Virus record (IMG/VR): IMGVR_UViG_2061766007_000582
Source: an uncultured virus (IMG/VR IMGVR_UViG_2061766007_000582)
Lineage: Duplodnaviria; Heunggongvirae; Uroviricota; Caudoviricetes
Length of the DNA: 20,000 nucleotides
Direction: 5' to 3' (one strand)
The notes below the pieces were generated by a model. The model had not been told where the DNA came from and searched no databases. It saw only the letters and a program-made list of their open reading frames with translations. Position numbers and translations under genes: made by a program. Within the stretch, counting starts at the first letter, position 1. Every line of letters starts with the position of its first letter. Positions 3,420 to 20,000 of this stretch are shown one piece after another.

Positions 3420-4373
3420 ATGCAGAAAACATTAGTCAACATTGATATAAACACACGAAGTCAGATTACACAGACAGGGCAGTTTGTGAATCGACAGGCT
3501 GATTACGTGCGTATTGAACGTGCATCTTGGTCTGTCCTGTGCTTTCAGTTCTATGACAGGCAGATAACGGACGAGGGTGGTGTTGTTCTTACTCCGTACC
3601 CCATCACCAATCTTTCGTTGGAGCTTCTGGTTGATAATGACTTTACAACCGAAACGCCAGTGATGATTAAATCTGTTGCTTCGGCTACCGTATTCGNNNN
3701 NNNNNNNNNNNNNNNNNNNNNNNNNATTGCCGGAGACTGGATTGACGGCGGTAATGCAGACCCCCTTCTTGGTCAGGTTTCCATTCGTATTTATTCCGGC
3801 ACTGAACGTCTTGAACAGGAATTTCAGCCATCTGGAAGAACACCGCCATCTGAACTGAAAAGCTGTTACCTCAGTCTGCGTCAGAAAGACCTTGAGGTTG
3901 CAACAACTACACCTCTTGTATGGATTCCTGTTATTCCGTATAACACCATTCTTGAGGAAATGCCCACTGAATATGTGATACCGCCTACTGAGGTTCTTTC
4001 ACAGGCACTCGCGGCTTACTTTACTCAGCCATTCACACTCAGCTACGCACAAACGGCTGATGCGACAAATTGGCACAGTACACCACAACCTGACGATAAC
4101 TTCATGGTTTTCAATCTCGGTCAGGTTGGTGCGATTCCTTCTGCACATTCGGGTCCTCTTCCAATTCCGAAACGCAGTATTATCCGTTACAGTGTAGATG
4201 ATGACCCACAGAGTATGGACGATGTTCTTGAGGAACCAAACGCCAATACTTACTTTGTGGCAATCATCAGCACAATAAAGGATGAAGCGGACATCGAACT
4301 CAGTGATTTTCAAAACAAGTGGTATCAGGCAAGAGCTTATGCAACTGAACCTATTTGGCAAACTGGAAACTGA
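3420..4373 (+). CDS. Putative baseplate/fibre attachment protein (N gap 3697-3725)
   Basis: Strong RBS; lies between tail genes and the long fibre; the motif SYAQTADATNWHSTPQPDDNFM resembles phage tail protein motifs. Confidence 0.5.
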   Translation: MQKTLVNIDINTRSQITQTGQFVNRQADYVRIERASWSVLCFQFYDRQITDEGGVVLTPYPITNLSLELLVDNDFTTETPVMIKSVASATVFXXXXXXXXXXIAGDWIDGGNADPLLGQVSIRIYSGTERLEQEFQPSGRTPPSELKSCYLSLRQKDLEVATTTPLVWIPVIPYNTILEEMPTEYVIPPTEVLSQALAAYFTQPFTLSYAQTADATNWHSTPQPDDNFMVFNLGQVGAIPSAHSGPLPIPKRSIIRYSVDDDPQSMDDVLEEPNANTYFVAIISTIKDEADIELSDFQNKWYQARAYATEPIWQTGN

Positions 4374-4403: not shown

Positions 4404-7400
4404 ATGGCTACTGGTTCCCCTGTTTCTTTCTGGTACGGTACTCGCGCACAGTTTGACAGTATCGCTACCAAACTCGACACAACACTCTATTTCATTACGG
4501 ACGAACAGGCTCTTTACAAGGGTTCTATCAAGTTCTCCGGCTCTGGTGTTGATACCCTGCTTTCCGTTGGTACTTCTGCTCCGGCATCCAATCAGCCGTA
4601 TGATAAGTATTTCAACACAAGCACTGGTCTCATTTACGTTCTGAGTGCTACTGGTTCTACTATTTCCAGTTACACCCCTGCAAATGGCGCACTGTATTAC
4701 AACGCCGATTCCCAGAGATTCATTACCCTTACTTACGACGGTTCTGCTTGGTCTGAAAACGACCTGTATGACGCAGGCATCAGTGTTGAGGACGGCACTG
4801 GTCTGTATCTGTCCGGCACTACTGTTGGCGGTCTTGATGCTACAACTTCCTCCAAGGGCGTTGTTCAGATTGGTTCAAACATCACCGTTTCCAATGGTCT
4901 GATTTCTGTTCCTATTGCCACCAATGCTGTTTTCGGCGTGGTCAAGACAGGAGACAACATCACAAATACCAATGGCGTTCTCTCTATTGCCAAAGCTACT
5001 GCATCTTCTCTTGGTGTTGTGAAGACTGGTACTCTTAGCGACACTGCGATTGGTATTGATGCAACAGCCAAGATTAGCGTTGCTGTCGCCAGTGCCTCTC
5101 AACGTGGTGCTGTCAAAATCGGCACTAACATCAATGTTGATGCAAACGGTGTTATCAGTGTCCCTATCGCAAGCAGTGGCACTATGGGTGTTGTCTCTGC
5201 TGGCGAAAACGTGAATAACCTCAATGGTATTCTTTCCGTCAGTAACGCAAGCACTACTTCTAAAGGCGTCATTAAGATTGCCTCTCCGTTCAGTTGCGAT
5301 TCCAGCGGTATTCTTGACATTGGTTACGCCTCCACATCCACAAAGGGTGTTATTAAAGTTGCCGCCCCATTCTCTGTTACTAACGGTGTTCTTGATATTG
5401 GTTACGCCTCCAATTCCGCTAAGGGTGTTGTCAAGATTGCCCTGCCTTTCAGTGTTTCGGATGGTGTTCTTGGTATTGCCAGTGCCACAGCATCCGCTAA
5501 AGGTGTTGTTCAGGTCGGTACAAACATTGACGTGAACTCCGGTGTTATTTCCGTCAAGACAGCTTCTACATCTGATAAGGGTGTTGTTCAGCTTCTCAAT
5601 AACCCTGCCAGTCTATCTTCTGAAACAACTGCTATCACCCCACATGCGGTAAGTCTTATTACAGAAGACCTCAATGCTTCTATCAACACCAAGCAGAATA
5701 CCCTCACACCCGGCTTCGACATTACACTTACCTCTGGTTCTACAATAAGTGTTCCTCGGTATCGTGATGTTGTGAACGTGACTGGTTCTTCCGTTACACT
5801 TCAGGCTGGTTACGCTTACAATATTCAGGCTACTACTGGCGCGAAGAAGCTGTTTACCGAGACCATTCCTTCCGGTCAGTTCGGTATGGAAGGTCACGCT
5901 GAAATCTACGTGACTGACACTGGTTACATTCAGACAGACACCAATGTTGTCCTTGTTGACGCTCTTGAACCGAACTCTGTAAATAACTGCACAATCCGCT
6001 TCCATAATGGTCTGTGCCTTATCAGCATTGAAGACCACGTTGCAGGTTACGTTGTTCGCACTGCCACAGGTACAGCTAACGGCTCCATTTACTATGGTAT
6101 GACCACTGACGCCAAAGAATATATCTCCGTTGATGCTTCTCTGAACGGACACCTGCTTGAAACGGATGAAGCTGTTATCACCATCAATAAGATGTTTGTT
6201 GGTAACGGTCAGGATGTTACTATCGTTGAAGGAGATATGACAGTCAATGCCGCCTTCTCGATGGTTGAATGCACTGTAAAGCCAATGAATATCTCCGGCA
6301 CTGGTTCGCTTGCTCTTGCCAACGCCGTTCTTGATTTCACTGATGCTACAAGTGCTGAACCTATCGGACTTACGGATGGTGTTAAGGTTGGTGCTAACGT
6401 TACGATTATTGACGGTGAAGGTGCTGAAAAACATCTTGACCCACGCACATACGGCACAATCAAGAAAGACGGTACTACTGAAGCCGCCAATTATGTTTAC
6501 GGTTATGCTCAGGGTCTTACTCAGGCTACCGCGAACTATGTTCCGATTGTGCTTTCCAATAACGTTATCAGCAAGGTTGATGCGCTTGACGCCTCCAAGA
6601 TGGCTTGCCATGAGCGTCGTGTTTGCGTTATGGACAATCTTTCTACTCGCCATATCAACTATTACCTGAATCCTGAGAACCTGAACAAGAAACTTGACGG
6701 CGGTGATGCTGTTCTTGACGGTACTGACGGTGATGTTATGACGGAGTTCATGCCCAGCTACTTCCTGAGCATCCAGCTTACTCCTCAGAACGATACTACA
6801 CCGCGTAACTGCATCCTCATGTCTCGTTATCCTTTCACATTCACTGACAGCAATAACGTTGAACATGTTGCGGTTATTCATGATTCGTTCAAGATTTCCC
6901 CGGATGGTGCTACTGTTCGTCCTCAGTACATGGGTTACTATCAGGCTTCCACCATCACTGACAATGGAACAAAGAAGCTCCGTTCTATCAGCTCCAAGAG
7001 TACAGCCTACATTTATCCTACCGTCAGCCTTAAACTCGGTCCTGTCGGTAATGACGCTGATACTGTTGACAGTTTCCTGAATCGTGCTATTGCCAATGGT
7101 GGTTCTGTCTGTAACGAACTGCATTACGAGTGGCTTTTCCATCTGTTTGTCTGCCAGAAGCTCACTGTTCATACACAGGACACCACTAAGGGTTCTCTCG
7201 GTTTCGGCTGGGCAAGCACTACATCTTGGGGTAGTTTCTATCCTCGTGCTTGCGGTTACACCAATGAGACGGAAAACTTCTACGGCGGTTCCACTTANNN
7301 NNNNNNNNNNNNNNNNNNNNNNNNNNNNNNNNNNNNNNNNNNNNNNNNNNNNNNNNNNNNNNNNNNNNNNNNNNNNNNNNNNNNNNNNNNNNNNNNNNNN

Positions 7401-8201
7401 NNNNNNNNNNNNNNNNNNNNNNNNNNNNNNNNNNNNNNNNNNNNNNNNNNNNNNNNNNNNNNNNNNNNNNNNNNNNNNNNNNNNNNNNNNNNNNNNNNNN
7501 NNNNNNNNNNNNNNNNNNNNNNNNNNNNNNNNNNNNNNNNNNNNNNNNNNNNNNNNNNNNNNNNNNNNNNNNNNNNNNNNNNNNNNNNNNNNNNNNNNNN
7601 NNNNNNNNNNNNNNNNNNNNNNNNNNNNGAATTGGGCTTATGTTTACACCAAAGCCTCTGACGGTATGCCAACCACTTCTACCAAGCTCTACACTGATGC
7701 GGCTTGCGAGACTGAATCTACACTGACAATTTCCAGNNNNNNNNNNNNNNNNNNNNNNNNNNNNNNNNNNNNNNNNNNNNCCGTGGGGTAGCATTTGGCA
7801 GAACCTCGCTGGTCTTCTCCCGATTTGCACTGGTGACAACATCGGTTACTTCCGTACAACAAGTACGAACCGCTACAAAGAGCTTCTCAAGGTTCCCATT
7901 AGTGAGGCTGGTACTTCTCGTGCCGCTTCCGAAGGTAATGCCGCTATTGATTGGGTTAGCTTCGCATGGCCCGCAACCTCAAACTGGGTCACTACATGGA
8001 ACATGGAGACCTTCTTGCCGACCAGTACAGGTACAAATGTGATGCAGGATTATTTCTATAATTCTACAACTGCAAGTCCTCGCGCTGGCCTCCGTGGTGG
8101 TNNNNNNNNNNNNNNNNNNNNNNNNNNNNNNNNNNNNNNNNNNNNNNNNNNNNNNNNNNNNNNNNNNNNNNNNNNNNNNNNNNNNNNNNNNNNNNNNNNN
8201 N
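4404..8201 (+). CDS. Long tail fibre/receptor-binding protein, DGR target with a C-terminal CLec-like domain (gaps 7298-7628, 7737-7780, 8102-8201; stop probably in or near the last gap)
   Basis: AAGGAG RBS; ten AS/TxxxKGVV repeats; LDGTDGDVMTE motif. After the gaps, 7781-8101 reads openly as PWGSIWQNLAG...DYFYNSTTASPRAGLRGG, resembling the GNxWEW...RGG signature of CLec-fold DGR targets. Frame changes coincide with N gaps. Confidence 0.85.
4836..5650 (+). repeat. Ten tandem ~26-31 aa fibre shaft repeats
   Basis: Examples: ATTSSKGVVQIGSNITVSNGLISVPI, ASTTSKGVIKIASPFSCDSSGILDIGY, ASTSTKGVIKVAAPFSVTNGVLDIGY, ASTSDKGVVQL. Resembles the ASTTxKGIVQL phage fibre repeat. Confidence 0.85.
8077..8201 (+). 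repeat. DGR variable repeat (VR); only 8077-8101 is sequenced
   Basis: TCCTCGCGCTGGCCTCCGTGGTGGT (8077-8101) matches TR 8379-8403 at 24/25 nt. The only mismatch is TR A8392 versus VR C8090. The flanking position is also A8378 versus G8076. Confidence 0.9.
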
Positions 8202-8234
8202 AACGAGAAAGAGATAGGGTGCGATGAACGAACG

Positions 8235-8314
8235 GACGAGAACGAGGACGTGGGGCGGTAAGTGGCAGGGAGGCTTTATGCCGACCGTAACGATAGCCCC
8301 TATCCTCGCTCGTC
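8235..8314. other. Long imperfect inverted repeat downstream of the VR
   Basis: GACGAG-aa-CGAGGAcgTGGGGC (8235-8256) pairs with GCCCCTATCCTCGCTCGTC (8296-8314). Inner CGGT/ACCG and GGCA/TGCC stems. Confidence 0.65.
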
Positions 8315-8318
8315 TAAT

Positions 8319-8347
8319 TCTGAAAATATTTAATCTTAGTATAAAAT
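8319..8347 (+). promoter_or_regulatory. Putative promoter for the TR-RT transcript
   Basis: AT-rich patch with a -10-like TAAAAT (8342-8347) and a weak -35 (CTGAAA, 8320-8325). The predicted start at about 8353-8355 coincides with the 5' arm of the TR-enclosing helix. Confidence 0.4.
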
Positions 8348-8354
8348 GTACTAA

Positions 8355-8648
8355 GGTGGGGTATATTGTGGACGGCTATCCTCGCGCTGGCATCCGTGGT
8401 GGTAACGCGAACAACAACTCCAACGATGGTTTGGGTTACGTCAACGTGAACAACGCTGTCGGCAATGCTAACGATAACATTGGGGCGCGGCTCTCTGCAT
8501 TTCTCTACAACTCTATGAGAAGTAGAAATGACACAGTATATTCCCATCACCGGACAGTAGGTGGCATAATGGACCGAATAGGAGTTAGTAAATTATCGTA
8601 TGATAAAGCTGAAAGCTCTCGGTTAAAAATGCAGACTGGATTAGCAAT
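8355..8648 (+). ncRNA. Predicted DGR RNA (5' arm, TR, ~145 nt structured spacer)
   Basis: 8355-8370 pairs with 8532-8548 (16 bp including G-U, one bulge). An AGUA/GAA loop-E-like hairpin lies at 8581-8620. Directly precedes the RT start. Confidence 0.6.
8378..8503 (+). repeat. DGR template repeat (TR)
   Basis: Reads PRAGIRGGNANNNSNDGLGYVNVNNAVGNANDNIGARLSAF with 11 AAC/AAT codons and a GC-rich GGGGCGCGG end, homologous to the VR. The 3' boundary is approximate. Confidence 0.93.
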
Positions 8649-9677
8649 ATGAAAAGAATACACGACATCTTTCCCTTTATGACTTCGTATCGCGTCCTCT
8701 ATATCGCGTACCTGAAGCTGAAAGCAAACAGCGATAAACGCCACATGAGACGAGTTATAAGGTTTGAAAAAGACCTTGTGATGAATCTGTTGCGTCTTTG
8801 TTTCATGCTCAAAGCCCAGACGTGGAAGATGGGTAATTACAGACACATGTTCAGACCGGAATCCGGTAAGTTACGTGAAATCTGGTACTCTTCAAATTTT
8901 GGCTGTCTTGTTGTTCAATGCGCTATTGGCATTACGCTTGGTAGATTGCTCAATAATAGCCTGATTGAAGATACTTATGCGGGTATTCCCGGACGCAGTA
9001 TGCACAAAGGGATGAGACGTTTGTTCCGTAAGATAAAGAGCTTCGGTGACAGACCAATCTTTGTGTATAAGCTGGACATGAAACAGTTTTACGCTTCAAT
9101 CGACCATGAGCTTCTCAAACAGGCATTAGCACGTAAAATCAAAGATAAGAGGGCATTGGCGTTGCTTTACAACATTATTGATAACTGCCCATTGAAAGTA
9201 GGTCTGCCTATTGGTAACTTCCTTTCTCCGATTCTTGCCAACTTCTACCTCAATGCATTAGACCGAATGGTTAAGAACGCTCACTTTGCTTATTACAGGT
9301 ATAATGACGATATTATTGCTCTGAGTGATTCCAAAGACAAGTTACACATACTCAAGGACATGGTTCACACAAAAGCCGCTGAATTAAAGCTCACTATCAA
9401 GAAGAATGAACAAATTTATCCGATTGAGCGCGGCGGTATTGATTTCATGGGCTATATTGTGCAGAGAAAGCGTGTCCTTGTCAGACGCAGAATTGAAAAG
9501 CATATGAGAAGAGATGCAAGGAAATTCGGTCTACATCCAACACCACACAGAGCCAAAGCATTAAGTTCTCGTTGGGGTTGGTTCAAGAGGGTTAAATCAG
9601 GTAAAAACTTCTGGTTCAAACAAATAGGGTGTACGATTGATAACTTTAACGACTTACAGGTGGCATTATGCAGTTAG
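8649..9677 (+). CDS. DGR reverse transcriptase
   Basis: 342 aa basic protein with RT motifs: ESGKLREI, IEDTYAGIPGRSMH, YKLDMKQFYASIDH, GLPIGNFLSPILANFYL, YYRYNDD, GIDFMGY. Adjacent to the TR; no maturase or endonuclease extension. Confidence 0.95.
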   Translation: MKRIHDIFPFMTSYRVLYIAYLKLKANSDKRHMRRVIRFEKDLVMNLLRLCFMLKAQTWKMGNYRHMFRPESGKLREIWYSSNFGCLVVQCAIGITLGRLLNNSLIEDTYAGIPGRSMHKGMRRLFRKIKSFGDRPIFVYKLDMKQFYASIDHELLKQALARKIKDKRALALLYNIIDNCPLKVGLPIGNFLSPILANFYLNALDRMVKNAHFAYYRYNDDIIALSDSKDKLHILKDMVHTKAAELKLTIKKNEQIYPIERGGIDFMGYIVQRKRVLVRRRIEKHMRRDARKFGLHPTPHRAKALSSRWGWFKRVKSGKNFWFKQIGCTIDNFNDLQVALCS

Positions 9678-10120
9678 ACAATGAGATTCTGAATATTGCC
9701 GATATTGCTCCTAACAGAACGGTTCTTGAAGGACGCAAAACGAAAATGAGCGAAATAGTAAATATGTCACTGGTATTTACTGGCTGGACATTTACCGAAT
9801 CTAAATTTCAAAACAAAAGAAAACACGAGGACTTTTACCCTGATGAACACGTCGAGGTTATTGAAGAAAAGAGCAAGACAAAGGATGAAGCCAGTGTTTC
9901 AGAGGATGAGCAGAATAAGGACAAAGCAAAGAAGACAAAGGAGAAAAGAGAATGCCTTACGTTACAATTCACACTTGATGGAGATTTACGTATCGTATTC
10001 ACATCTTCTGCGGTACTTATACAGCAACTCAGAGATTTCCTGAAAGTGAAACCAGATGCAACAAGTTTCAGAGCAACCATTAAACACATCGACAATCGTT
10101 TCTATAAATTTTCCACATAA
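9668..10120 (+). CDS. Candidate non-Avd DGR accessory protein
   Basis: Overlaps the RT stop by 10 nt. Beta-rich core (LEGRKTKMSEIVNMSLVFTGW...LTLQFTLDGDLRIVFTSSAVLIQQL...SFRATIKHIDNRFYKFS) with a charged low-complexity insert. Confidence 0.6.
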   Translation: MQLDNEILNIADIAPNRTVLEGRKTKMSEIVNMSLVFTGWTFTESKFQNKRKHEDFYPDEHVEVIEEKSKTKDEASVSEDEQNKDKAKKTKEKRECLTLQFTLDGDLRIVFTSSAVLIQQLRDFLKVKPDATSFRATIKHIDNRFYKFST

Positions 10121-12654: not shown

Positions 12655-13041
12655 ATGAAGAAACTTGTTACAATCCTCGCTTTCGCCCTCACTTTCATGG
12701 TCACTTCCTGTGGTCATAACTTCGGCACTGTTGTTCACGGCAAATTTGTGAACCTCGGCTATGACCCTGAACTGAATAAGTTTGGGATTCAGTACGTTGA
12801 CGGTGTTATGATGACTGGCATGAACAAGGAGAAATCCAAAAATGCCTTTAAGTTCACCGACTCTGCTGAAAAGGGTGATGCGAAAACAACCACCATCGTT
12901 GAATATACAAACGAGAATGGCGCACAGGTTACAGGCTATCAGGTTGACTTGGTTGAAGCTATGGGCGAAGCCAACGTTGATAAAGATGAGGTGATTCAGA
13001 CCAAGAAAGATGTTGCTGAAATCGTTGAAGAACCCAAATAA
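12655..13041 (+). CDS. Lipoprotein (possible spanin or exclusion protein)
   Basis: AAGGAG RBS; signal peptide MKKLVTILAFALTFMVTSC ending in a lipobox-like VTSC. Confidence 0.7.
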   Translation: MKKLVTILAFALTFMVTSCGHNFGTVVHGKFVNLGYDPELNKFGIQYVDGVMMTGMNKEKSKNAFKFTDSAEKGDAKTTTIVEYTNENGAQVTGYQVDLVEAMGEANVDKDEVIQTKKDVAEIVEEPK

Positions 13042-13115: not shown

Positions 13116-13592
13116 TTAAAGAACTGCACCCGGTACAAATTCTTCGGAATCAAAGCATTTAGCCTCTGTAAATCCGTAGTTTGCACCATGAGCCGCAATC
13201 ATAATTATTTGAATACCAAGCGTTTTTGACAGATATTCAAGTAACTTGCCAACCATAGGCTGATAGTTGGTACTCACAGCTCCGGCAGGTTCATCGAGGA
13301 TTAGAGTACGCCTCAACTTTCTTTTGTCCATACAGAGAACAGCAACACGCAGGGCTATGGCAACCATATCTGCAATACCGTCTCCGTTCTGGCTCCGAAT
13401 GTCAAATATCTCCTCGCCCTTGTAAAGATACATGGAACAGGACATATTACCGTACTTGACATTGAAATCGAGAACAAACTTATAATCCGAATCGAAAACG
13501 AACTTCAAGGTATCTGTTACGATTTTGCTTACATTCACACTAATCGTTTCAAGCGTGTAAGTGGCTGTTTCCTTGACGTAAGCCTGTAATGC
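13116..13592 (-). CDS. C-terminal half of an SbcC/Rad50-like ATPase (5' end in the gap; the copy starts MTIKDM at 11443)
   Basis: Degenerate signature SQNGDG, ALRVA, Walker B LILDEP and H-loop IMIAAH. Confidence 0.8.
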   Translation of the reverse strand, partial: ALQAYVKETATYTLETISVNVSKIVTDTLKFVFDSDYKFVLDFNVKYGNMSCSMYLYKGEEIFDIRSQNGDGIADMVAIALRVAVLCMDKRKLRRTLILDEPAGAVSTNYQPMVGKLLEYLSKTLGIQIIMIAAHGANYGFTEAKCFDSEEFVPGAVL

Positions 13593-13612
13593 NNNNNNNN
13601 NNAGAGATTGAG

Positions 13613-14566
13613 TTATTCATACATCGCCTCGAACATGGTTAAAAGTTTGTCGTGGTTTGGGTCGTTTGCAATAATGTGCTTGAAGTTGTCTTTGAAGTTA
13701 AGGGAAAGCTCAAAGCTATCGTCAATCGTGTTCATCATGCCGCTTATCTTGGCGTAGAGTGCTTTCTTCTCGTCAATATGTTCGCGGTGAATGTCGTAGG
13801 TCAAAGGCAACGGATAGTCTTCAACGTTCAGGATTAGGTTGCTGTCCATGTCGTATTCAATAATCGTAGCCTTTGGCTTGTAGTCGATTTGGTCGGCGCG
13901 TAATCTGAAAACAGAACCACAGTTGATACAGGCTATGCCGTCAATCTCCTGTGAGAACGGTTTATGATAGTCGCCGGAAATAATCAACCGTGTATTCTCT
14001 GACGTACAGTTCTTGACAAACCATTCGATGTTGTTTTCTTCCTTGGCTTCATCAAACGGCTTATCCTTGTAGTACATCCCTTTGTGCATGACAATAATGG
14101 GTCTGCCGTTCTTTTTAACAGTACCGTCATGTAAATCATCGGAATAGTACACAGGATAATACAAACCCTGATTCTTGTCAAGGTGTCTGAATACCCCCAT
14201 ATTCGCCATAAGCGTGTAGGGAGAACGTTTCAGCTCGTCAGGATTACCACCCATGCTGTCGTGGTTTCCGGGTATGCAACTAAGGTTGCCATCACGATTA
14301 ATGCCATTAGCTCCTCTACAGGCATTATTGAGCTGACTTAACCAACCTGCACATTGAATAAGAAACTGCATTGTGTTTGTACGCCAAGAATCAAAAATGT
14401 CACCGGCGATTATAATGTGATTCACGTGCCGTTTCTTTGCCAATGTAGCGATAAACTGGATTTTATTGTCGATTGTTGCAATCCAATCTTCCTGTTCATC
14501 GCGGCACTCAGGCTTGTTTTCCTTTAAGTGCAGGTCAGCCAAAGCAAGGATTTTATGGATTCTCAT
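13613..14566 (-). CDS. sbcD: SbcD/Mre11-like metallophosphoesterase nuclease
   Basis: Motifs ADLH, AGDIFD, PGNHD, VMH, SGDYH, NCGS. Confidence 0.88.
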   Translation of the reverse strand: MRIHKILALADLHLKENKPECRDEQEDWIATIDNKIQFIATLAKKRHVNHIIIAGDIFDSWRTNTMQFLIQCAGWLSQLNNACRGANGINRDGNLSCIPGNHDSMGGNPDELKRSPYTLMANMGVFRHLDKNQGLYYPVYYSDDLHDGTVKKNGRPIIVMHKGMYYKDKPFDEAKEENNIEWFVKNCTSENTRLIISGDYHKPFSQEIDGIACINCGSVFRLRADQIDYKPKATIIEYDMDSNLILNVEDYPLPLTYDIHREHIDEKKALYAKISGMMNTIDDSFELSLNFKDNFKHIIANDPNHDKLLTMFEAMYE

Positions 14567-15609
14567 ACTTCACCTATAACCTGTCCGCAAGTTGGGCAAA
14601 CAGTACCGACCAGAGCATGAAGTTTGTCCTCGTACTCTTTATACATGTTCTTTGCCTGTTTTCCTTGCTGAATCAGTGTTTTGAATGTGGATTGTTCGGC
14701 TTGCAGTTCGTTGAGGTTCTGACGGTACTCAACAATGTCGTGCTGAATACGGCTGAGGGAGATAATGTCAGATTCAGCCTCAGTGATGTTATTGTTCTGC
14801 AACTTGACAACAACATCCTTGAGCTGGCTTCTCAACAGTCTGATTTCGTACAGCTCGTTATACTGCTCATCCGCAACCTGTTTGAGTTGTTCCAGTACGC
14901 ACAGGTCTTTATCTGCATCAGCGTAGCGTTCATAACCAGCCATAGCACGTTGAATCCAAAACAGCTTGTCTTTGTACTCGGTGATTGCTTTTAGTTCTTC
15001 TTGCAATTTAATGCAAACATCACGGTCGGCAGTGTATGCTTTCAGCAGTCCAGCCGCCATGTCAATATCAGCGTAAAAAGCAAGCTCTTCTTTAGCCTTT
15101 GAGATACAGACTTTGAGTTTCTCCACATTATCGGCAGTCTGTTTGACATAGCGATTTGTGTTTGACGTAACAGTCTGAATCTCGTTAAGGTCAAGCATCG
15201 TACTGAACTGTTCCGCTGTTTCAGAGCCTTTGTAGTAGACCATAAACGGCAAATCTCGTCTGTCCTGAATCGAGATAGCGTCCATGTTCACCAGTAATGC
15301 AATATCACCGGGTACACTGGTTCTGAATGACTTATACAGATTGTCATTCAGCTTGTAGGTATTGCTTGAGGCACTGTACGACCTCTCAACCACATTACCG
15401 TCAATCGTTGCTGATACGGTGCATTTCTGAGTGCCGTGTTTGACGAGTTTGCTTGAATCTCCGTCATTCATCAACACCCACTTCAACCCACGGAATATGG
15501 CTGTTTTACCTGAATCCGTAGGTCCTGTGATAACGTTGACACCCTCAATGAAGTTCAACGTAATGTTTTCGTGTTTCTGTAGATTGGTAGCTTTTAATTG
15601 CTCAATCAT
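14563..15609 (-). CDS. sbcC: N-terminal half of an SbcC/Rad50-like ATPase
   Basis: MIEQLKATNLQKH, Walker A GPTDSGKT, coiled coil, ends just after zinc hook CPTC. No Walker B. Start taken after the AGGAGG RBS. Confidence 0.85.
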   Translation of the reverse strand: MIEQLKATNLQKHENITLNFIEGVNVITGPTDSGKTAIFRGLKWVLMNDGDSSKLVKHGTQKCTVSATIDGNVVERSYSASSNTYKLNDNLYKSFRTSVPGDIALLVNMDAISIQDRRDLPFMVYYKGSETAEQFSTMLDLNEIQTVTSNTNRYVKQTADNVEKLKVCISKAKEELAFYADIDMAAGLLKAYTADRDVCIKLQEELKAITEYKDKLFWIQRAMAGYERYADADKDLCVLEQLKQVADEQYNELYEIRLLRSQLKDVVVKLQNNNITEAESDIISLSRIQHDIVEYRQNLNELQAEQSTFKTLIQQGKQAKNMYKEYEDKLHALVGTVCPTCGQVIGEV

Positions 15610-15808
15610 CGAAACCTCCTGTATTGTTCTCAAGAATTAAGCGATAATCGGACAGCATAAACTTTTTAGCCAGTCTTTTAGCCACGCGAATATCCTGTAC
15701 TCCGTAGTTGATAAGACGAATAGCCTGACGCTTATGCAGTCCGGTTATCTTACATACTTGCTCTGTGGTAAGTCCCATCTGAGCAACAATGTTAAACAGC
15801 TTTGTCAA
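15602..15808 (-). CDS. Small HTH DNA-binding protein
   Basis: MGLTTEQVCKITGLHKRQAIRLINYG is XRE-like; overlaps both neighbours. Confidence 0.55.
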   Translation of the reverse strand: MTKLFNIVAQMGLTTEQVCKITGLHKRQAIRLINYGVQDIRVAKRLAKKFMLSDYRLILENNTGGFDD

Positions 15809-16208
15809 GAGTAGCCACCGAAATTCTTATTTTTGGTGTGTCACTGTATAGCTTGAATGAGTGCCTGACAGCTATTAAACTATCGTCTGCCCATAGAATC
15901 CCTGTTAAGGCGTCTTGCAGGGCTTTTCCGCAGTTGTCAATGTCTGGTCTGGTAATCTTATAGACCGGACTGCCTTTGAGCGATTTTGGTGGCTTAAAAT
16001 AAAAACCAAAGTGTACCTCTAATGGAACACCACTAAAAAGAGGTATGGTTTCATGTTTCAAATCCTCTGTAACGTATTCGGCAACCTGTTTCTTGAAGTT
16101 TACGACTTTTGCAGGTTGGTAGGTGGTGATATGTTTTCCGATACGGCGAACCCTTACGGATTGAACAGGGATTACCTCAAAAGGAATCTCTATTTCGTAT
16201 CGAGCCAT
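15792..16208 (-). CDS. rusA: RusA-family Holliday junction resolvase
   Basis: RPDIDNCGKALQDALTGILWADDSLI catalytic motif; GAGGTG RBS. Confidence 0.9.
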   Translation of the reverse strand: MARYEIEIPFEVIPVQSVRVRRIGKHITTYQPAKVVNFKKQVAEYVTEDLKHETIPLFSGVPLEVHFGFYFKPPKSLKGSPVYKITRPDIDNCGKALQDALTGILWADDSLIAVRHSFKLYSDTPKIRISVATLDKAV

Positions 16209-16209
16209 T

Positions 16210-17202
16210 ATTCACCTCNNNNNNNNNNTGCTTTTGAATCAGACCATAGTAATCACAGAGTTTGATGAAATACTTATAGTCAAACTCATCAGGAACCAAC
16301 TCAAAGTAAGGAACACCACCAAGAGGAAGACGAACCAGTTTATCCCATAGGGCAAGTTCACCGTTCTTTTGGGCATCCTCAATCTTTTTGACAAGGAGTG
16401 ATGGCTTTCCTGATGGTGTTCTGATTGTTCCGGTAAGCAGATATTCAAGCGCACGATTCTCACCGATACCTCTAACACCCGGAACTGCATCAGAGTGACA
16501 CCCAGCCAATGCTTTCACGTCAGCAAATCGACTTGGATGCATACCACGGAGTTTTGGGCTGTTCATGGCTCTCGCTTCGTTGTAGACAGTAACGTTATTG
16601 CCGCCACCGTATTCCCTGACCGAAGCCATAGCCACGTTTTTCCTGATAAGCTGAATGTAATCGTTATCGTCAGAGTAGATAACAAAGTATCTGTCAGGGT
16701 AGGAATCAACGATACTGGCAATAATATCGTCACCCTCATATCCGTCAGCCTTGTAGCAGTTCTTGAAGCCGAGTTTTGGAACTACCTCAGTCTCAATGAT
16801 TTTCCAGAAATACTCGCACTCTTTACGGATTTGCAGGTTTTTATCCATAGCCTCCGTATTTCTTTGGCTTGTGTGCGGCATTTCTTTTTCAGGATTCCAT
16901 CCAGCCCGATTGTTTTTATAATCAGGATAGAGTTTACGTCTGATACTGGTTTCCCTTGAACAGTCCCATGCAAACACTAACTTTGTGGTATTCAGTGCTT
17001 TGCAAATGAACTCGATTTTATCAAAGAAACAGTTCAGGATAGTAGCCTCACGCTCTTCCTGACTTCTGACATTCGGGTAGTTTTTGTATGCCTTGAATGT
17101 AGCGTTCCAGCATACACAACGGCTGTCAACTAAAATGGTAATGCGGTCTTTCGGCATATTCAGGAAGTTGACAGCTCGTTCACGGTTCGTTAAGTTTGGC
17201 AT
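16210..17202 (-). CDS. 5'-3' exonuclease/flap endonuclease (T4 RNase H or Pol I N-terminal family); 3' end uncertain at gap 16219-16228
   Basis: ILVD, FAWD, RRKLYPDYKNNR, GYEGDDIIA, SDDND, LAGCHSDAVPGVRGIGE. Confidence 0.9.
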
Positions 17203-17512
17203 CTATAATAGCTCTCCTACAGTAATCTATGGAGCGTTGCATTTTTCTTGATACACGTTCAGCGTTATTTAGAGTTACGTTAGGGACTTGTACCGTACAT
17301 TCAACGTAGGCTCTATCTCGTCCTTCGCTGATGTTCATGGCATAACACCAAGCCTCATCCGTAAGCCCCGAACGCTTCCTGAAATCCAAGTAAGCCCGAT
17401 TCCTCACGACCATTTCCTTATAGTCGGCTACGGTCATGTTTGATTCAGGAATGTCGGACAGATTGATTGTAAAGGAATCGTCTTCGGGGTTCTCTAAATA
17501 ACGCTTCTTCAT
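17180..17512 (-). CDS. Hypothetical protein, possibly HTH-containing
   Basis: FRKRSGLTDEAWCYAMNISE resembles an XRE HTH; tightly packed in the operon. Confidence 0.45.
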   Translation of the reverse strand: MKKRYLENPEDDSFTINLSDIPESNMTVADYKEMVVRNRAYLDFRKRSGLTDEAWCYAMNISEGRDRAYVECTVQVPNVTLNNAERVSRKMQRSIDYCRRAIIDAKLNEP

Positions 17513-17514
17513 GT

Positions 17515-17712
17515 TCAGAAATCCGGTAGACGTGCTTCACCTGCGTGCTGCAAGTCATACACGTGTTTTTCACAGATTGAATCCACCTTTTCAATAAGTT
17601 CCTTGATGGATTCTTCGTATTCAGGCTTAACCTCATTCTCGTTGAGTTTGACTTCGAGAGCTATGGATTCGTAAGCCTTTGTCTGCATGGTTCGTCTGTA
17701 AGAAATTTCCAT
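17515..17712 (-). CDS. Small hypothetical protein
   Basis: 65 aa, AAGGT RBS, in operon orientation. Confidence 0.55.
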   Translation of the reverse strand: MEISYRRTMQTKAYESIALEVKLNENEVKPEYEESIKELIEKVDSICEKHVYDLQHAGEARLPDF

Positions 17713-17764
17713 TGTGGTTTACCTTTATTGGGGTGGTGGCATAATAACCACCACCCCTGTTTTG

Positions 17765-18868
17765 TTAAGCGTCAATATCGAAGTCACTAAGCTCGAAATC
17801 ATCGCTCGGCTGGACTTCCTCTTCTGTGGCAAAGCCCGAAGGATTCTGTGGCATAGCTTCAACGGAGGGGATGTTGGCAGGTTCTTTCGGACCGTATGCC
17901 TTATCGAAAACCTCGTCAACCTTCTTCTTCAGTTCAGGGTTGCTCTCAACGTATGCGACAGCTCCTTCGATAGCTTCTCTTGTGCTTACCGGACGTTCAG
18001 CATCCCCAGTGTCAATACCGATTTCAGGCTGTTCTTCCTGTTTTGGAGCCGGAACATTAACCGGACGCTCATCAATCAGAGCATACAGTTCCTCGTAAGA
18101 CGGAGCTTCAGGAATCAGCAGGTCAAGGTCAGCCACGTAATCAAAGAGCTGTTCAGGAAGCATCTTGGACGTGGAAAGGTCGAGCTTCACGTCAAGCAAC
18201 TGCATCATCTGCTTGGACTTCGGATTGGTAGCAACAGCCGGAGCCATGCCGAACCGAGCAGTGAACCAGTAACCAAGTTCAATGTCGGAGTAGCTGTAAA
18301 TTTTATCAGCTTCTTTCGGTTTGAACTGTTCTTCCGCTTTCAGAGCCTTGTCAAAAATGGGAATGAAGTAGAACTCGGTGCATTTGACAACACGAGGAAC
18401 AACCTTCACACTGCCACTTTCCGTAGGAGTTTTGAAGACGGCATTGAACAGAAGCATCTTTTTGGGTCTGAGCTTGCTGTACGGAGACTGGTTTGTCTTG
18501 TCGTTCTTGATTTCATCCCAATGCGCCGCAACAGTCTCGCACAGGGGGCATTTCTTACCGTAAGTGGTCGGACACACAACGGTACGTCCATCAGGCAGGT
18601 TATGGGTCTTGTAGCGTCTGAAAGCACTGAACTCACCGGGTTTCGTACCACCTGCATTGACAGCTTTTGTGGTCTGGAAGTCAACGATACGCATGATAGC
18701 CTCTTCCGGTTTGTCATTCTGAGGCCACCAGAGCTTCACACCTTTTGGGAGTGTACTGGTGTTAAGAATCTCCCTGAAATTACCAGTGAGGACAGCTTTT
18801 GCCGCCGCCACTCGTGCATCATGGGATTCGCGCATACGTTTGATGTCAGCCATTGTGAAATTGCTCAT
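17765..18868 (-). CDS. gp32-like single-stranded DNA-binding protein
   Basis: AAGGAG RBS; H...CPTTYGKKCPLC zinc motif; acidic C-terminal tail SDDFELSDFDIDA; replication context. Confidence 0.75.
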   Translation of the reverse strand: MSNFTMADIKRMRESHDARVAAAKAVLTGNFREILNTSTLPKGVKLWWPQNDKPEEAIMRIVDFQTTKAVNAGGTKPGEFSAFRRYKTHNLPDGRTVVCPTTYGKKCPLCETVAAHWDEIKNDKTNQSPYSKLRPKKMLLFNAVFKTPTESGSVKVVPRVVKCTEFYFIPIFDKALKAEEQFKPKEADKIYSYSDIELGYWFTARFGMAPAVATNPKSKQMMQLLDVKLDLSTSKMLPEQLFDYVADLDLLIPEAPSYEELYALIDERPVNVPAPKQEEQPEIGIDTGDAERPVSTREAIEGAVAYVESNPELKKKVDEVFDKAYGPKEPANIPSVEAMPQNPSGFATEEEVQPSDDFELSDFDIDA

Positions 18869-18885
18869 AGTCTTCTCCTTTGGGA

Positions 18886-19218
18886 TTAGTTATTGTTGTG
18901 GTCAAGGAACATATCACGTGCGAAATCAAGCTCAACTTTATAGCAATCGAGCTTTGCCTGTGCTTCAAGAACCTTAGCATTGAGTTCTGCAAACTCAGTG
19001 ATGGTCATGCTTCTGATGCACTCTTCGGAGTATTTAGCACCAGCCATCTTTTCTCTGTAAAGTTCGGTACGCTTGGAGTGGCGCGCTCTGTCATAAGCGG
19101 CAGTAAGGTTTGCCAACTCGATTCTTGCGTTTTCATAGTTGCTCATAGCTCGTGCGTAGTTGCATTTGAGCAGGTTCTTGTCGTTCAGTTCGATTGCAGA
19201 TTCCATGTTATCTGTCAT
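18886..19218 (-). CDS. Helical protein, possibly a UvsY-like recombination mediator
   Basis: 110 aa coiled coil next to the SSB gene; AGGAG RBS. Function is inferred from size and context. Confidence 0.45.
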   Translation of the reverse strand: MTDNMESAIELNDKNLLKCNYARAMSNYENARIELANLTAAYDRARHSKRTELYREKMAGAKYSEECIRSMTITEFAELNAKVLEAQAKLDCYKVELDFARDMFLDHNNN

Positions 19219-19247
19219 TGTGGTTCTCCTCTATTGGGGTTGTGGAC

Positions 19248-19287
19248 TGCTTTAAGTATAATATAGCACACTTAAAGCAAAAATCAA
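19248..19287 (-). promoter_or_regulatory. Extended -10 promoter overlapped by a 10-bp inverted repeat
   Basis: Minus strand TTGATT (19287-19282), 16 nt, TGcTATATT (-10 at 19265-19260). TGCTTTAAGT (19248-19257) and ACTTAAAGCA (19270-19279) flank the -10. Confidence 0.65.
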
Positions 19288-19313
19288 GCGAAAATCAATA
19301 AAAAGTTAAAAAT

Positions 19314-20000
19314 TTATTCAGGTAAATCTCGAAAACCCTTGAAAATTGGGAATCTGAGGGAAGGTTTGCCTGTTGCATCGGTTGTTTCCTCAAAGTATTT
19401 CACGGTTATCTTGCGTCCGAGGTATTTATCAGGGTTGTTATAGAGGTCAATCCTAAGCTCGTCAGAAAGCCCACTGCCAACAGCTACAGGATTACCCTTA
19501 TAACGAATAACCATAGCCCCAGCCAGTTTCGTTTCTTCCATCTGACCTGTTTTTACATTGAGGATATTTTTGGTGGTTCCTGTAATGTCCTCAATAATAA
19601 ACTCATCATCGGTGAACTTCTTGACCTTCAGCAAATCAGCAGTACGACCAGACTGATATGGAGCATCAGCACGAAGAATCAGACCCTCCCATCCCTTACG
19701 TTCGACAAGCTGAGTTGCCTTATCGAAGTTCTCAGGCGTGTATTTACAATGCCCAATTACGCTGAATTTAGAGCTTGTGAAATTCTGAAACATGAACTCC
19801 AAAGCATTTAATCTCAGGCGGTAGGGTCTGTCTGATTTGATGCCTAAGAACTCCTCCGGGGTAAGCATATCGAACATCTTGTAGTGCGGTTTGAGCATTG
19901 TCTCGTGCCGCCTGATTTCCGATACTGCCTGTTTGAAGTTCTCCTTGTTATTCTCGTCAATGACACACAATTCACCATCGAGATAACAAGATGTGCCAAA
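19314..20000 (-). CDS. ATP-dependent DNA ligase (partial, starts beyond the window end)
   Basis: Frame is open from 20000: YLDGEL, FD, WEGLILR, YQSGRTADLLKVK, VGSGLSD, ITVKYFE, SLRFPIF. Confidence 0.92.
   Translation of the reverse strand, partial: FGTSCYLDGELCVIDENNKENFKQAVSEIRRHETMLKPHYKMFDMLTPEEFLGIKSDRPYRLRLNALEFMFQNFTSSKFSVIGHCKYTPENFDKATQLVERKGWEGLILRADAPYQSGRTADLLKVKKFTDDEFIIEDITGTTKNILNVKTGQMEETKLAGAMVIRYKGNPVAVGSGLSDELRIDLYNNPDKYLGRKITVKYFEETTDATGKPSLRFPIFKGFRDLPE

Follow-up and report, generated by a model that had tools for sequence, protein, structure and literature searches.

A DGR aimed at the tail-fibre tip of a cattle-gut phage, in an Avd-less class and with a candidate RT-coupled accessory protein

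The DGR of Bordetella phage BPP-1, with the gene order mtd-avd-TR-brt, varies a receptor-binding protein of the phage at its C-terminal VR, using an AAY-rich TR that lies upstream of the RT and is separated from it by a spacer of ∼140 nt. Avd is not found in every such element, however. In the portions of Wu et al. 2018 (PMC5758913) drawn on here, avd accompanies just 275 of 372 DGRs, 75 of the 372 have the layout target-TR-RT with no accessory gene, and one group, Lineage 3, 'notably lacks avd'. The same portions describe Avd proteins as 'very poorly conserved' and state that, in genomes with avd-less DGRs, a profile search found avd nowhere else. The excerpted text of Morozova et al. 2020 (PMC7290462) describes a tail-fibre DGR of the same layout in the crAss-like phage LMMB, again without avd and placed by its authors in Lineage 3.

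We analysed a 20,000-nt stretch of DNA from an uncultured tailed phage, referred to here as the window. An earlier reading of its sequence alone had proposed a host-range-switching DGR at 4404..10120. The element is a real DGR directed at the tip of the tail fibre, at the C terminus of that protein, as judged from the placement of the RT, the geometry of TR and VR, differences confined to adenines in close relatives and environmental contigs, and homology of the target domain to a known DGR variable protein. We think it likely, with good but not complete confidence, that the locus is a functional-type DGR of a ∼76-kb phage from cattle-gut metagenomes, belonging to the Avd-less target-TR-RT class and having ORF150 as its accessory. 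The nearest complete relative, G001, has 29% of sampled k-mers in common with the window, with 75–96% identity across the locus. The features are as follows.

4404..8201, + strand: DGR target gene, a tail fibre (ORF start at 4404) whose N-terminal half holds 26-aa repeats and whose C terminus is a CLec-type domain closed by the VR.
8077..8201, + strand: VR, readable at 8077-8101 only, the remainder being N; the homologous G001 VR is L006:1958-2079.
8252..8300, + strand: GC-rich imperfect hairpin in the VR-TR gap.
8333..8357, + strand: AT-rich 11-bp hairpin just 5′ of the TR.
8379..8500, + strand: TR, 122 nt with 28 adenines and 11 AAY codons, its GC-rich 3′ end common to the VR.
8501..8648, + strand: TR-RT spacer, of which 8543-8638 resembles Rfam RT-17 (RF03020).
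8649..9677, + strand: DGR RT, 342 aa.
9668..10120, + strand: ORF150, candidate accessory subunit, sharing its first 10 nt with the end of the RT gene and carrying a charged insert of ∼45 aa.

The target gene matches Pfam Phage_tail_C (7.2e-7) and phrog_5302 'tail protein' (9.3e-9). Its stop codon is hidden because N runs interrupt the gene at 7298-7628, 7737-7780 and 8102-8201. The lengths of these runs disagree with G001, and the reading frames and the ∼175 bp between VR and TR are therefore nominal. From that distance it had been argued that there is no room for avd; in G001 the gap is 212 nt. In DGRs the VR closes a target gene whose product has a ligand-binding domain of CLec or Ig type. 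An uninterrupted target ORF is present in L008 and G001, with the stop directly after the VR. A profile of 19 target C-termini aligned with TaqVP (5vf4_A; PDB 5VF4), the Thermus aquaticus DGR variable protein of FGE-type CLec fold, at E 4.5e-6 over chain residues 58-383, the VR included. Identity to TaqVP is low, and the window protein differs in being a tail fibre of >1000 aa with N-terminal repeats. An AF2 model of the target domain (pLDDT 52.5) was too poor for confirming a CLec fold.

The start of the VR, 8077-8101, is identical to TR 8379-8403 at 24 of 25 bases, the exception being an A in the TR (8392) that is a C in the VR, exactly as first read; by our own estimate the chance of such a match in 7 kb is ∼1e-5. 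Because 8102-8201, the entire mutable body of the VR, consists of 100 N, this is the one informative VR/TR mismatch in the window, and adenine specificity is shown only for relatives. In the VR frame the 11 AAY codons of the TR, together with 5 single-A codons, encode 15^11 x 4^5 = 8.9e15 possible peptides and can create no stop codon, which agrees with the earlier hand count. Between the window and G001 the TR has 11 differences in 122 bases, none of which alters the peptide encoded in the VR frame. DGRs typically have an IMH closing the VR and a non-identical IMH* closing the TR. In G001 the final 21 nt of VR and TR are identical and GC-rich, with divergence immediately beyond; no IMH/IMH* difference was located in the G001 VR/TR ends, and the window VR end is N. 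A hairpin between VR and TR had also been reported. It is present (RNA fold −22.5 kcal/mol, z −2.1) but only modestly better than shuffled sequence, 6 of 200 shuffles folding as well, and the hairpin next to the TR folds at −9.9 kcal/mol (z −1.75). Both are identical in G001, where the block 8251-8378 is conserved at 114 of 128 positions.

The adenine-only pattern is clear among relatives. All 15 VR/TR mismatches in G001 fall at TR adenines. Contig X9, from another study, shows 0 differences from G001 over 2054-2450, TR and spacer being identical, and 19 in the VR, every one at a TR-adenine offset (chance probability ∼8e-16). A further contig, X3, has 10 of 10 differences at such offsets among those listed. 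More broadly, 72 of 80 related loci contain a TR/VR pair in which TR adenines account for at least 80% of the mismatches.

A DGR-type RT had been read after the TR, and profile searches bear this out. The product of 8649-9677 matches Pfam RVT_1 (4e-17) and phrog_1423 (3.4e-79), both PHROG and profile span being shared with BPP-1 Brt. Among solved structures the best match was 8ub7_A, a 328-aa RT aligned over its full length (8.3e-22, residues 3-310), compared with 6.3e-13 for a group II RT; the letters of 8ub7 aligned to the window RT are those of BPP-1 Brt, to which identity is 28%. NCBIfam models for group II, retron and DRT enzymes gave no match to the window RT at cut-off, the best reaching 95 bits against 300. 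Rather than grouping outside the DGRs, an outcome that the sequence-only reading had named as fatal to its call, the window RT lies inside a 78-row clade of phage DGR RTs (support 100) in a quick maximum-likelihood tree of 86 RTs, with 4 group II RTs apart (support 100). DGR RTs carry the hallmark [LIV]GxxxSQ at motif 4. The window RT reads IGNFLSP, and so departs from the SQ of BPP-1. Across the rows examined, IGxxxSQ occurs in 66 of 82 DGR RTs, IGxxxSP in 8 of 82, these being the window subclade plus L079, and QGxxxSP in 4 of 4 group II RTs. Because loci with SP show mismatches at adenines only (L006 15/15, L009 13/13, L015 14/14 and L019 17/17), we take IGxxxSP to be a lineage variant that excludes nothing.

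The element belongs to the known Avd-less target-TR-RT class, and by association, the curated reference RTs of Wu et al. lying outside the 86-RT tree, it would be placed in their Lineage 3 / Architecture A1. Its order, target-VR-TR-RT with no avd, is that of the Lineage 3 / A1 DGRs of Bacteroidetes and of LMMB; the tail of the VR, ...G(A/S)RL..., looks CLec3-like when compared by eye with the excerpted supplement of Wu et al.; and the named homologues of ORF150 are all from Bacteroidota. The crAss-like RTs fall within the same 78 rows, and RTs of loci with the PAG1 arrangement described below also share the clade. However, the window phage is not itself crAss-like: its RT is just 33% identical to those of crAss-like phages, and no close relative at the DNA level was found for it in the collection of phage genomes. 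The proposal of a 'non-canonical class' as something new is thus not upheld, the layout being already described in the cited portions of Wu et al. 2018 (PMC5758913) and Morozova et al. 2020 (PMC7290462). What is new here is the RT-coupled ORF150 family and a conserved RT-17-like spacer.

That spacer is far more constant than the RT gene, which is 75% identical to that of G001: 135 of 136 positions (99.3%) are the same over 8501-8636. The RT-17 model RF03020 aligned with the window over its full length at 24.7 bits (E 0.007-0.02), below the gathering score of 40.4, with both stems formed and the conserved 3′ AAAAUGCAGAC tail present. Spacers of relatives scored 44.9 (L065) and 43.1 (L030), both above the gathering score, and 38.7 (L038), and the same scan found 0 matches to RF03020 at E<=0.1 in 9 other sources. 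Judged from these alignments, the spacer probably forms a structured 3′ portion of the DGR RNA. The Rfam entry RF03020 presents RT-17 as a motif without a stated function, and Weinberg et al. 2017 assigned only RT-10 to a DGR, namely that of BPP-1, whereas the window spacer resembles RT-17.

A further difference from BPP-1 is that the window lacks avd between VR and TR, none was found elsewhere, and the RT is followed by a small protein rich in beta structure. This protein, ORF150, is the unknown ORF of the earlier reading and the feature of the locus that tells us most. It had 0 matches in Pfam, PHROG, NCBIfam and PADLOC. It belongs to a large family, labelled 'hypothetical' throughout, of beta-rich and mostly basic proteins of ∼100 aa, comprising 1196 representative clusters at E<=1e-3 (family alignment A3; 50% identity clusters). 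The family median pI is 8.9 (n=59), although neither the window copy (6.8) nor the G001 copy (5.4) is basic. Of the 80 related loci, 54 encode a member directly downstream of the RT, and another 2 have a distant one in the VR-TR gap. The AF2 model of ORF150 is built of five strands and a single helix, its beta-rich core having pLDDT>90. Its fold matches are weak: VIA-align placed it closest to 2cqa (Z 6.2, rmsd 2.8, 69 residues) and then to many SSB, RPA and PriB chains (Z 3.4-4.9); Foldseek with the same model returned 0 matches at E<=0.001. We considered and rejected the identification of ORF150 with Avd itself, as A3 aligned to three Avd proteins with an hhalign probability of 0.08% and the beta-rich model is not a four-helix bundle, Avd being a basic protein of that fold with ∼120 aa.

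From this sequence and context we infer that ORF150 is probably an accessory subunit of this lineage. It could instead be an ordinary phage gene that acts in tail-fibre assembly, say, or encodes a small SSB-like product, and that is merely syntenic with an RT acting alone or with host factors. What its model resembles are OB folds of a generic kind and SSBs, and Phi29_Phage_SSB annotates 44% of the ESM-Atlas neighbour cluster of ORF150, although Pfam scans of 35 members gave this no backing. Moreover, a family member went undetected in 24 of the 80 related loci, all the crAss-like ones among them, and so the protein is not universal among Avd-less DGRs; the consulted text of Wu et al. 2018 (PMC5758913) warns that genes common to few DGRs may be just conserved phage genes. 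Against this, a reverse scan starting from the family found a DGR-type RT directly upstream in 69 of 69 independently identified loci, the median gap being −10 nt and the genes overlapping or nearly touching in 66 of them. Two proteins, P0340 and P0263, join RT and family member in one chain; at least one is taken as a fusion, but both could be frameshift artefacts of overlapping genes. The family also spans proviruses, named Bacteroidota genomes and archaeal viruses, and the window phage encodes a gp32-like SSB elsewhere, at 17765-18868. We therefore regard a gene unconnected with the DGR as rather unlikely.

Comparison with accessory genes described elsewhere also suggests that the ORF150-type gene travels with the cassette. 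PAG1 ('potential accessory gene 1') was described by Wu et al. 2018, in the excerpts used, from three Alistipes/Bacteroides DGRs. It resembles the ORF150 family in its small size (∼115 aa) and in the order of its conserved blocks, and it occurs in avd-less cassettes of Lineage 3, but its gene fills the avd slot in the VR-TR gap and does not follow the RT. ORFs occupy this position in L041, L079 and L089, and we equate them with PAG1 on the wording of the excerpted supplement. A3 aligned to these ORFs over 85 columns with an hhalign probability of 71% (E 3.7e-5), and hmmsearch with the ORF150 family found two of the three (E 3.5e-4 and 0.008) and missed the third, which points to a distant homology. 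CH1 of the same paper, an acidic protein of 160-169 aa encoded immediately after the RT in Lineage 3a, is like ORF150 in position and rough size in the excerpted description, but the sequences look unrelated, by eye only. In the archaeal virus ANMV-1 (Paul et al. 2015) the target, TR and RT are followed by a 98-aa ORF that shares 40% identity with a consensus-like member of the family, whereas its RT falls outside the 78-row clade. The Avd profile phrog_3206 found nothing in ANMV-1; an 'Avd' ORF, which may be this 98-aa one, is named in the Fig. 1b legend of Paul et al. 2015.

The earlier observation that no Avd-like gene is evident in the window is confirmed, 24 window ORFs giving 0 Avd family matches, although its premise that DGRs need Avd fails on the counts of Wu et al. 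given above. An Avd might nevertheless be present and have been missed, either as too divergent for three profiles or as supplied in trans by the host. The poor conservation already cited speaks for this, as does a phmmer search with BPP-1 Avd alone, which had 0 matches even among other DGR loci, and the whole-genome search was that of relative G001, the window phage being represented by its 24 window ORFs. However, PF05635, phrog_3206 and TIGR02436 each gave 0 matches at E<=10 in the complete G001 genome, and in 47 related virus records, of which 10 are >=90% complete, phrog_3206 gave 0 matches while finding both positive controls. VR-TR gaps of 107-319 nt in the window subclade are too short for avd, and the avd-less genomes of Wu et al. 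lacked it elsewhere by profile search as well. An overlooked Avd is in our view very unlikely. Just as improbable is an inactive relic, with a cassette intact in sequence and a tail fibre no longer diversified: the window VR is unreadable, its sole visible mismatch is one base and motif 4 departs from SQ, but none of the RT, ORF150, the TR and the spacer is disrupted, with the near-invariant spacer and solely synonymous TR changes relative to G001 noted above, SP-variant loci have adenine-only mismatches, and sister-strain contigs from different studies differ only at VR adenine sites.

For an active Avd-less DGR, the BPP-1 paradigm and the adenine-only pattern of the relatives together suggest the following scheme. 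An RNA spanning the TR (8379-8500) and the conserved RT-17-like spacer (8501-8648) would be the template; the RT (8649-9677) would copy the TR into cDNA, misincorporating opposite adenines; and the cDNA would take the place of the VR, where the tail-fibre gene ends. In this way as many as 16 codons of the CLec-type receptor-binding tip would be varied, never yielding a stop codon, and host-range switching by a putatively diversified fibre tip is a reasonable inference. In place of Avd, ORF150 (9668-10120) may partner the RT as an OB-like protein that binds nucleic acid. We further propose, tentatively and at slightly less than even chances, that the ORF150 family, which has no Pfam entry, is the missing substitute for Avd in the Avd-less DGR lineage: an OB-like, usually basic protein, translationally coupled and now and then fused to the RT, which would join the RT and the RT-17-type spacer in an RNP unlike bRT-Avd, with PAG1 as a displaced distant member.

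The window DNA is that of a phage and carries, on the + strand, a block of structural genes whose last member is a long tail-fibre ORF matching Pfam Phage_tail_C (7.2e-7) and phrog_5302 'tail protein' (9.3e-9). The features concerned are as follows.

From 4404, + strand: tail-fibre ORF, the DGR target
8077-8201: VR (readable at 8077-8101)
8379-8500: TR
8501-8648: spacer between TR and RT
8649-9677: RT
9668-10120: ORF150, a small ORF directly 3' of the RT
13116-20000, - strand: replication/recombination module (Pfam and PHROG matches)

The module comprises a phrog_15167 ATPase fragment, an SbcD-like metallophosphoesterase, an SbcC-like ATPase, RusA, a 5'-3' exonuclease, a gp32-like SSB and an ATP-dependent DNA ligase. 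A search of the phage collection found no DNA near-identical to the window. A 128-aa ORF at 12655-13041 has a lipoprotein-signal-like N-terminus (Cys after a hydrophobic stretch) and a weak Pfam Ntox47 match below threshold (E 0.001, 19.7 bits; cut-off 25). Within the tail-fibre gene, a 33-nt core recurs in at least seven copies over 4839-5594, the final four at 78-nt spacing, and each repeat encodes 26 aa with the motif A-S-x-S-x-K-G-V-V; a 519-aa open frame antisense to the gene (5613-7172, - strand) was treated as incidental to the repeat-rich coding strand.

The RT that follows the TR is of the DGR type, as had been read from the sequence (RVT_1 4e-17, phrog_1423 3.4e-79). Its best solved relative was 8ub7_A (E 8.3e-22, nearly full length), whose aligned residues are those of BPP-1 Brt, followed by a group II intron RT (6.3e-13). 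The window RT is 28% identical to Brt over 313 residues, and the two match one PHROG across a common profile span; none of the NCBIfam models for group II, retron or DRT RTs came near its cut-off for the window RT. We built a quick IQ-TREE phylogeny of 86 RTs, with SH-aLRT support only, from 94 sequences less exact duplicates, those containing X or shorter than 290 aa having been removed earlier. The window RT fell in a 78-row clade (support 100) together with its IMG/VR relatives and crAss-like RTs, four group II RTs split off with support 100, and BPP-1, two Ideonella DGR RTs and ANMV-1 lay outside the 78-row clade. The window RT and seven other rows have IGxxxSP at motif 4, where 66 of the 82 DGR rows have IGxxxSQ and all four group II RTs QGxxxSP; at loci whose RT has IGxxxSP, mismatches are still adenine-only. 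Of 80 IMG/VR loci retrieved with the RT alignment, 72 have a TR/VR pair in which TR adenines account for at least 80% of the mismatches, and in six of the eight loci lacking a pair the RT lies within ~250 nt of a contig end.

Eight N runs interrupt the window (3697-3725, 7298-7628, 7737-7780, 8102-8201 and four of 10 N), the second to fourth of which fall towards the 3' end of the tail-fibre gene. The run at 8102-8201 is the entire mutable VR body, which is why the sequence-only reading could see no more than the first 25 VR bases. These (8077-8101) are indeed identical to TR 8379-8403 at 24 of 25 positions, the downstream copy having A at the other. The arithmetic of that reading is likewise correct: with the TR in the frame of the upstream copy, 11 AAY and five single-A codons allow 9e15 peptides and no stop codon. 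The hairpin it placed between VR and TR is present, as two (8252-8300 and 8333-8357), but these score only ~2 sd better than shuffles. Since the window VR is N, adenine mutagenesis is not demonstrable in the window itself; it is clear in close relatives. The nearest complete relative, G001, is a viral genome of 76,348 bp that carries direct terminal repeats and is rated 100% complete; our whole-genome statements rest on it. It matches the DGR region of the window at 78-96%. Its stretches corresponding to the three tail-fibre N runs differ from them in length (331 N against ~177 nt, 44 against ~61 and 100 against ~130), so that apparent frame breaks in the window gene are uninformative; the gene is a single open frame in G001 and in another retrieved locus, L008. 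G001 has a complete VR (1958-2079 of its DGR region, L006) and TR (L006:2292-2413), each 122 nt, which differ at 15 positions, all of them TR adenines (28 A in 122 nt). The VR closes the tail-fibre ORF and is followed directly by the stop codon.

Part of 8203-10120 was found in 20 metagenome runs from 14 studies, all as assembled contigs and most labelled bovine gut metagenome, and we compared contigs of four runs with the VR-TR region of G001. One contig of run X4 is identical to G001, which may come from that run. A 650-nt contig of run X9, from a different study, shows no differences over 2054-2450 (the post-VR region, TR and start of the spacer) and 19 differences from G001, all inside 1971-2053; all 19 fall at TR-adenine offsets (chance probability ~8e-16). 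Two short contigs of run X3 carry further VR alleles, with 10 of 10 listed differences at adenine offsets in contigs of low depth (a depth below 5 can carry errors), and in run X1, from which the window may derive, no Logan contig covered the VR core of the G001 reference. The sister strain thus shows recent adenine-directed diversification. The TRs of the window and G001 are identical at 111 of 122 positions and all 11 differences are synonymous in the VR frame, as expected if non-adenine TR bases dictate VR scaffold residues. Although non-coding, the TR thus seems to change under a constraint at the protein level, presumably as it dictates the invariant VR scaffold.

The C-terminal 360 residues of the target had no Pfam match, and their AF2 model was poor (pLDDT 52.5), which makes a Foldseek search with it meaningless. 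A profile of 19 target C-termini gave one clear match among PDB sequences, 5vf4_A (E 4.5e-6), with the VR within the alignment; 5VF4 is described in the consulted text of PMC6328139 as TaqVP, a DGR variable protein of Thermus aquaticus with an FGE-type CLec fold.

Profile searches beyond the window agreed with the proposed absence of Avd. Six-frame searches of G001 with PF05635, phrog_3206 (the family containing BPP-1 Avd) and TIGR02436 gave no match at E<=10. Both positive controls were matched by phrog_3206 (BPP-1 at 5.9e-31, an Ideonella plasmid twice), and it found nothing in 47 related IMG/VR records, of which 10 reach a completeness of 90% or more, nor in ANMV-1, whose paper labels an ORF 'Avd' in a figure legend. 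Iterative phmmer/hmmsearch from BPP-1 Avd over all locus ORFs recovered the query alone, and the VR-TR gap in the window subclade, 107-319 nt, is too short for avd. The further claim, that the locus represents a non-canonical class, did not hold, such DGRs being already in print (Wu et al. 2018, PMC5758913; Morozova et al. 2020, PMC7290462). In the sections of Wu et al. 2018 available to us, avd is reported in 275 of 372 DGRs, leaving about a quarter of known DGRs without it, and 75 of the 372 are given a TR-RT architecture free of accessory genes. Lineage 3 DGRs have no avd there, a profile search elsewhere in those genomes being negative, and an Avd-independent mechanism is proposed in those sections with no components named. 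The crAss-like phage tail-fibre DGR outlined in the accessible text of Morozova et al. 2020 has the same layout (target-VR-TR-RT, no avd, a Lineage 3 RT). The window locus is a real DGR of a phage tail fibre and falls within the already known Avd-less target-TR-RT kind. The mechanistic and structural DGR work found in our literature search concerns bRT-Avd throughout.

ORF150 starts 10 nt before the RT stop codon, and searches of Pfam, PHROGs, NCBIfam and PADLOC gave no match to it. Twelve homologues came from a single-sequence search, and an HMM built from them detected an ORF 3' of the RT at many of the 80 loci. With a 35-sequence alignment (A3), family members were recognised at 56 of these 80 loci, and at 54 the member is the next gene behind the RT, in the RT orientation; in L079 and L089 a weak match sits between VR and TR. 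Of 970 candidates from a word-index search with A3, 520 proteins reached E<=1e-3, all 'hypothetical' and free of Pfam domains, the named ones all from Bacteroidota, and an exhaustive search matched 1196 representative clusters at E<=1e-3 (679 at E<=1e-10). Five of 12 members tested match phrog_19665, 'unknown function', and no Pfam family is common to more than one of the 35 members. We also scanned IMG/VR in reverse, blind to RTs, with a 12-sequence alignment of a 98-aa subgroup. This returned 69 loci, ~16 of them on contigs of the first set, and in 69 of 69 a DGR-type RT lies directly upstream on the same strand, with a median RT-ORF gap of -10 nt and overlap or a distance of at most 20 nt in 66. 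The two are even joined in one protein: P0340 (420 aa) is an RT (RVT_1 71-268, IGxxxSQ) fused to an ORF150-family domain (320-420), P0263, a fragment, belongs to this fusion type, and P0284 has the domain in two tandem copies behind an acidic N-terminus. Members also follow the RT in ANMV-1 (L099, 3986-4282) and a Methanosarcinales virus (phage record BK063673, 38032-38304), both archaeal viruses, and the family therefore crosses domains. We found no earlier description of this RT-downstream protein in the literature, bioRxiv supplements and figures lying outside the search.

No family member was found in 24 of the 80 loci, all crAss-like ones included, and several of these have a different small ORF behind the RT. 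This second kind (L013:1572-1916, L072:8016-8360, L031:1285-1569, L041:6266-6565, L079:7941-8309 and L089:3929-4294), from crAss-like and some other loci, carries the motif '...YS-x-(S/D)-(D/E)-E-x-x-L...', has no significant family match, and may be another RT-linked family or a tail-fibre-associated gene.

AF2, given 13 sequences, modelled ORF150 with a beta-rich core predicted at high confidence, a single helix and a charged, disordered loop (51-90). The resemblance of the model to known folds is weak and lies mostly with OB folds, led by 2cqa (Z 6.2), with chains of SSB, RPA and PriB next (Z 3.4-4.9); Foldseek returned nothing at E<=0.001, and the A3 profile nothing meaningful among PDB sequences. 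The family has a median pI of 8.9 (n=59), the window protein one of 6.8 because of its insert. ORFs between VR and TR in L041, L079 and L089 nearly match the PAG1 sequences of Wu et al. 2018, read by eye, and align with A3 in hhalign (probability 71%, E 3.7e-5, 85 columns). A tblastn search of phages with the PAG1-position ORF gave no match, and PAG1 is deemed tenuous in the text of Wu et al. (PMC5758913) at hand, being present in only three or four DGRs. CH1, described in the same text as an acidic protein directly behind Lineage 3a RTs, was rejected as the identity of ORF150 since its sequences look unrelated, compared by eye alone. Phi29_Phage_SSB, an Atlas lead, had no support from Pfam scans of the 35 members. 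Avd itself was dismissed, the ORF150 model being beta-rich rather than a helical bundle and hhalign of A3 against three Avd proteins giving a probability of 0.08%.

The spacer between TR and RT is more conserved than its neighbours: 135 of 136 bases (8501-8636) are identical in the window and G001, compared with 772 of 1029 for the RT and 63% for ORF150. The Rfam model RF03020 (RT-17) aligns in full to 8543-8638 with both stems formed, at 24.7 bits (under its gathering score, 40.4), and reaches 44.9 bits in the spacer of L065, 43.1 in L030 and 38.7 in L038; nothing was found at E<=0.1 in nine other sources searched. In the consulted part of Weinberg et al. 2017 (PMC5737381), RT-10 is placed in the BPP-1 spacer and other RT motifs are speculated to serve other DGRs. 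A MAFFT alignment of eight spacers yielded 0 pairs in RNAalifold and no covariation support. An ORF across the TR and spacer (8224-8652) was rejected as a gene, its frame reaching the RT start in only six of 18 loci and the spacer being conserved at the nucleotide level.

On its own, the window DGR is one more tail-fibre-diversifying DGR of a rumen phage. What it adds together with its relatives, judged from context and conservation, is a pair of concrete candidates for the Avd-independent mechanism: the small RT-coupled protein as a putative partner of the RT, and the conserved RT-17-like spacer RNA, both testable with reconstitution assays already used for BPP-1.
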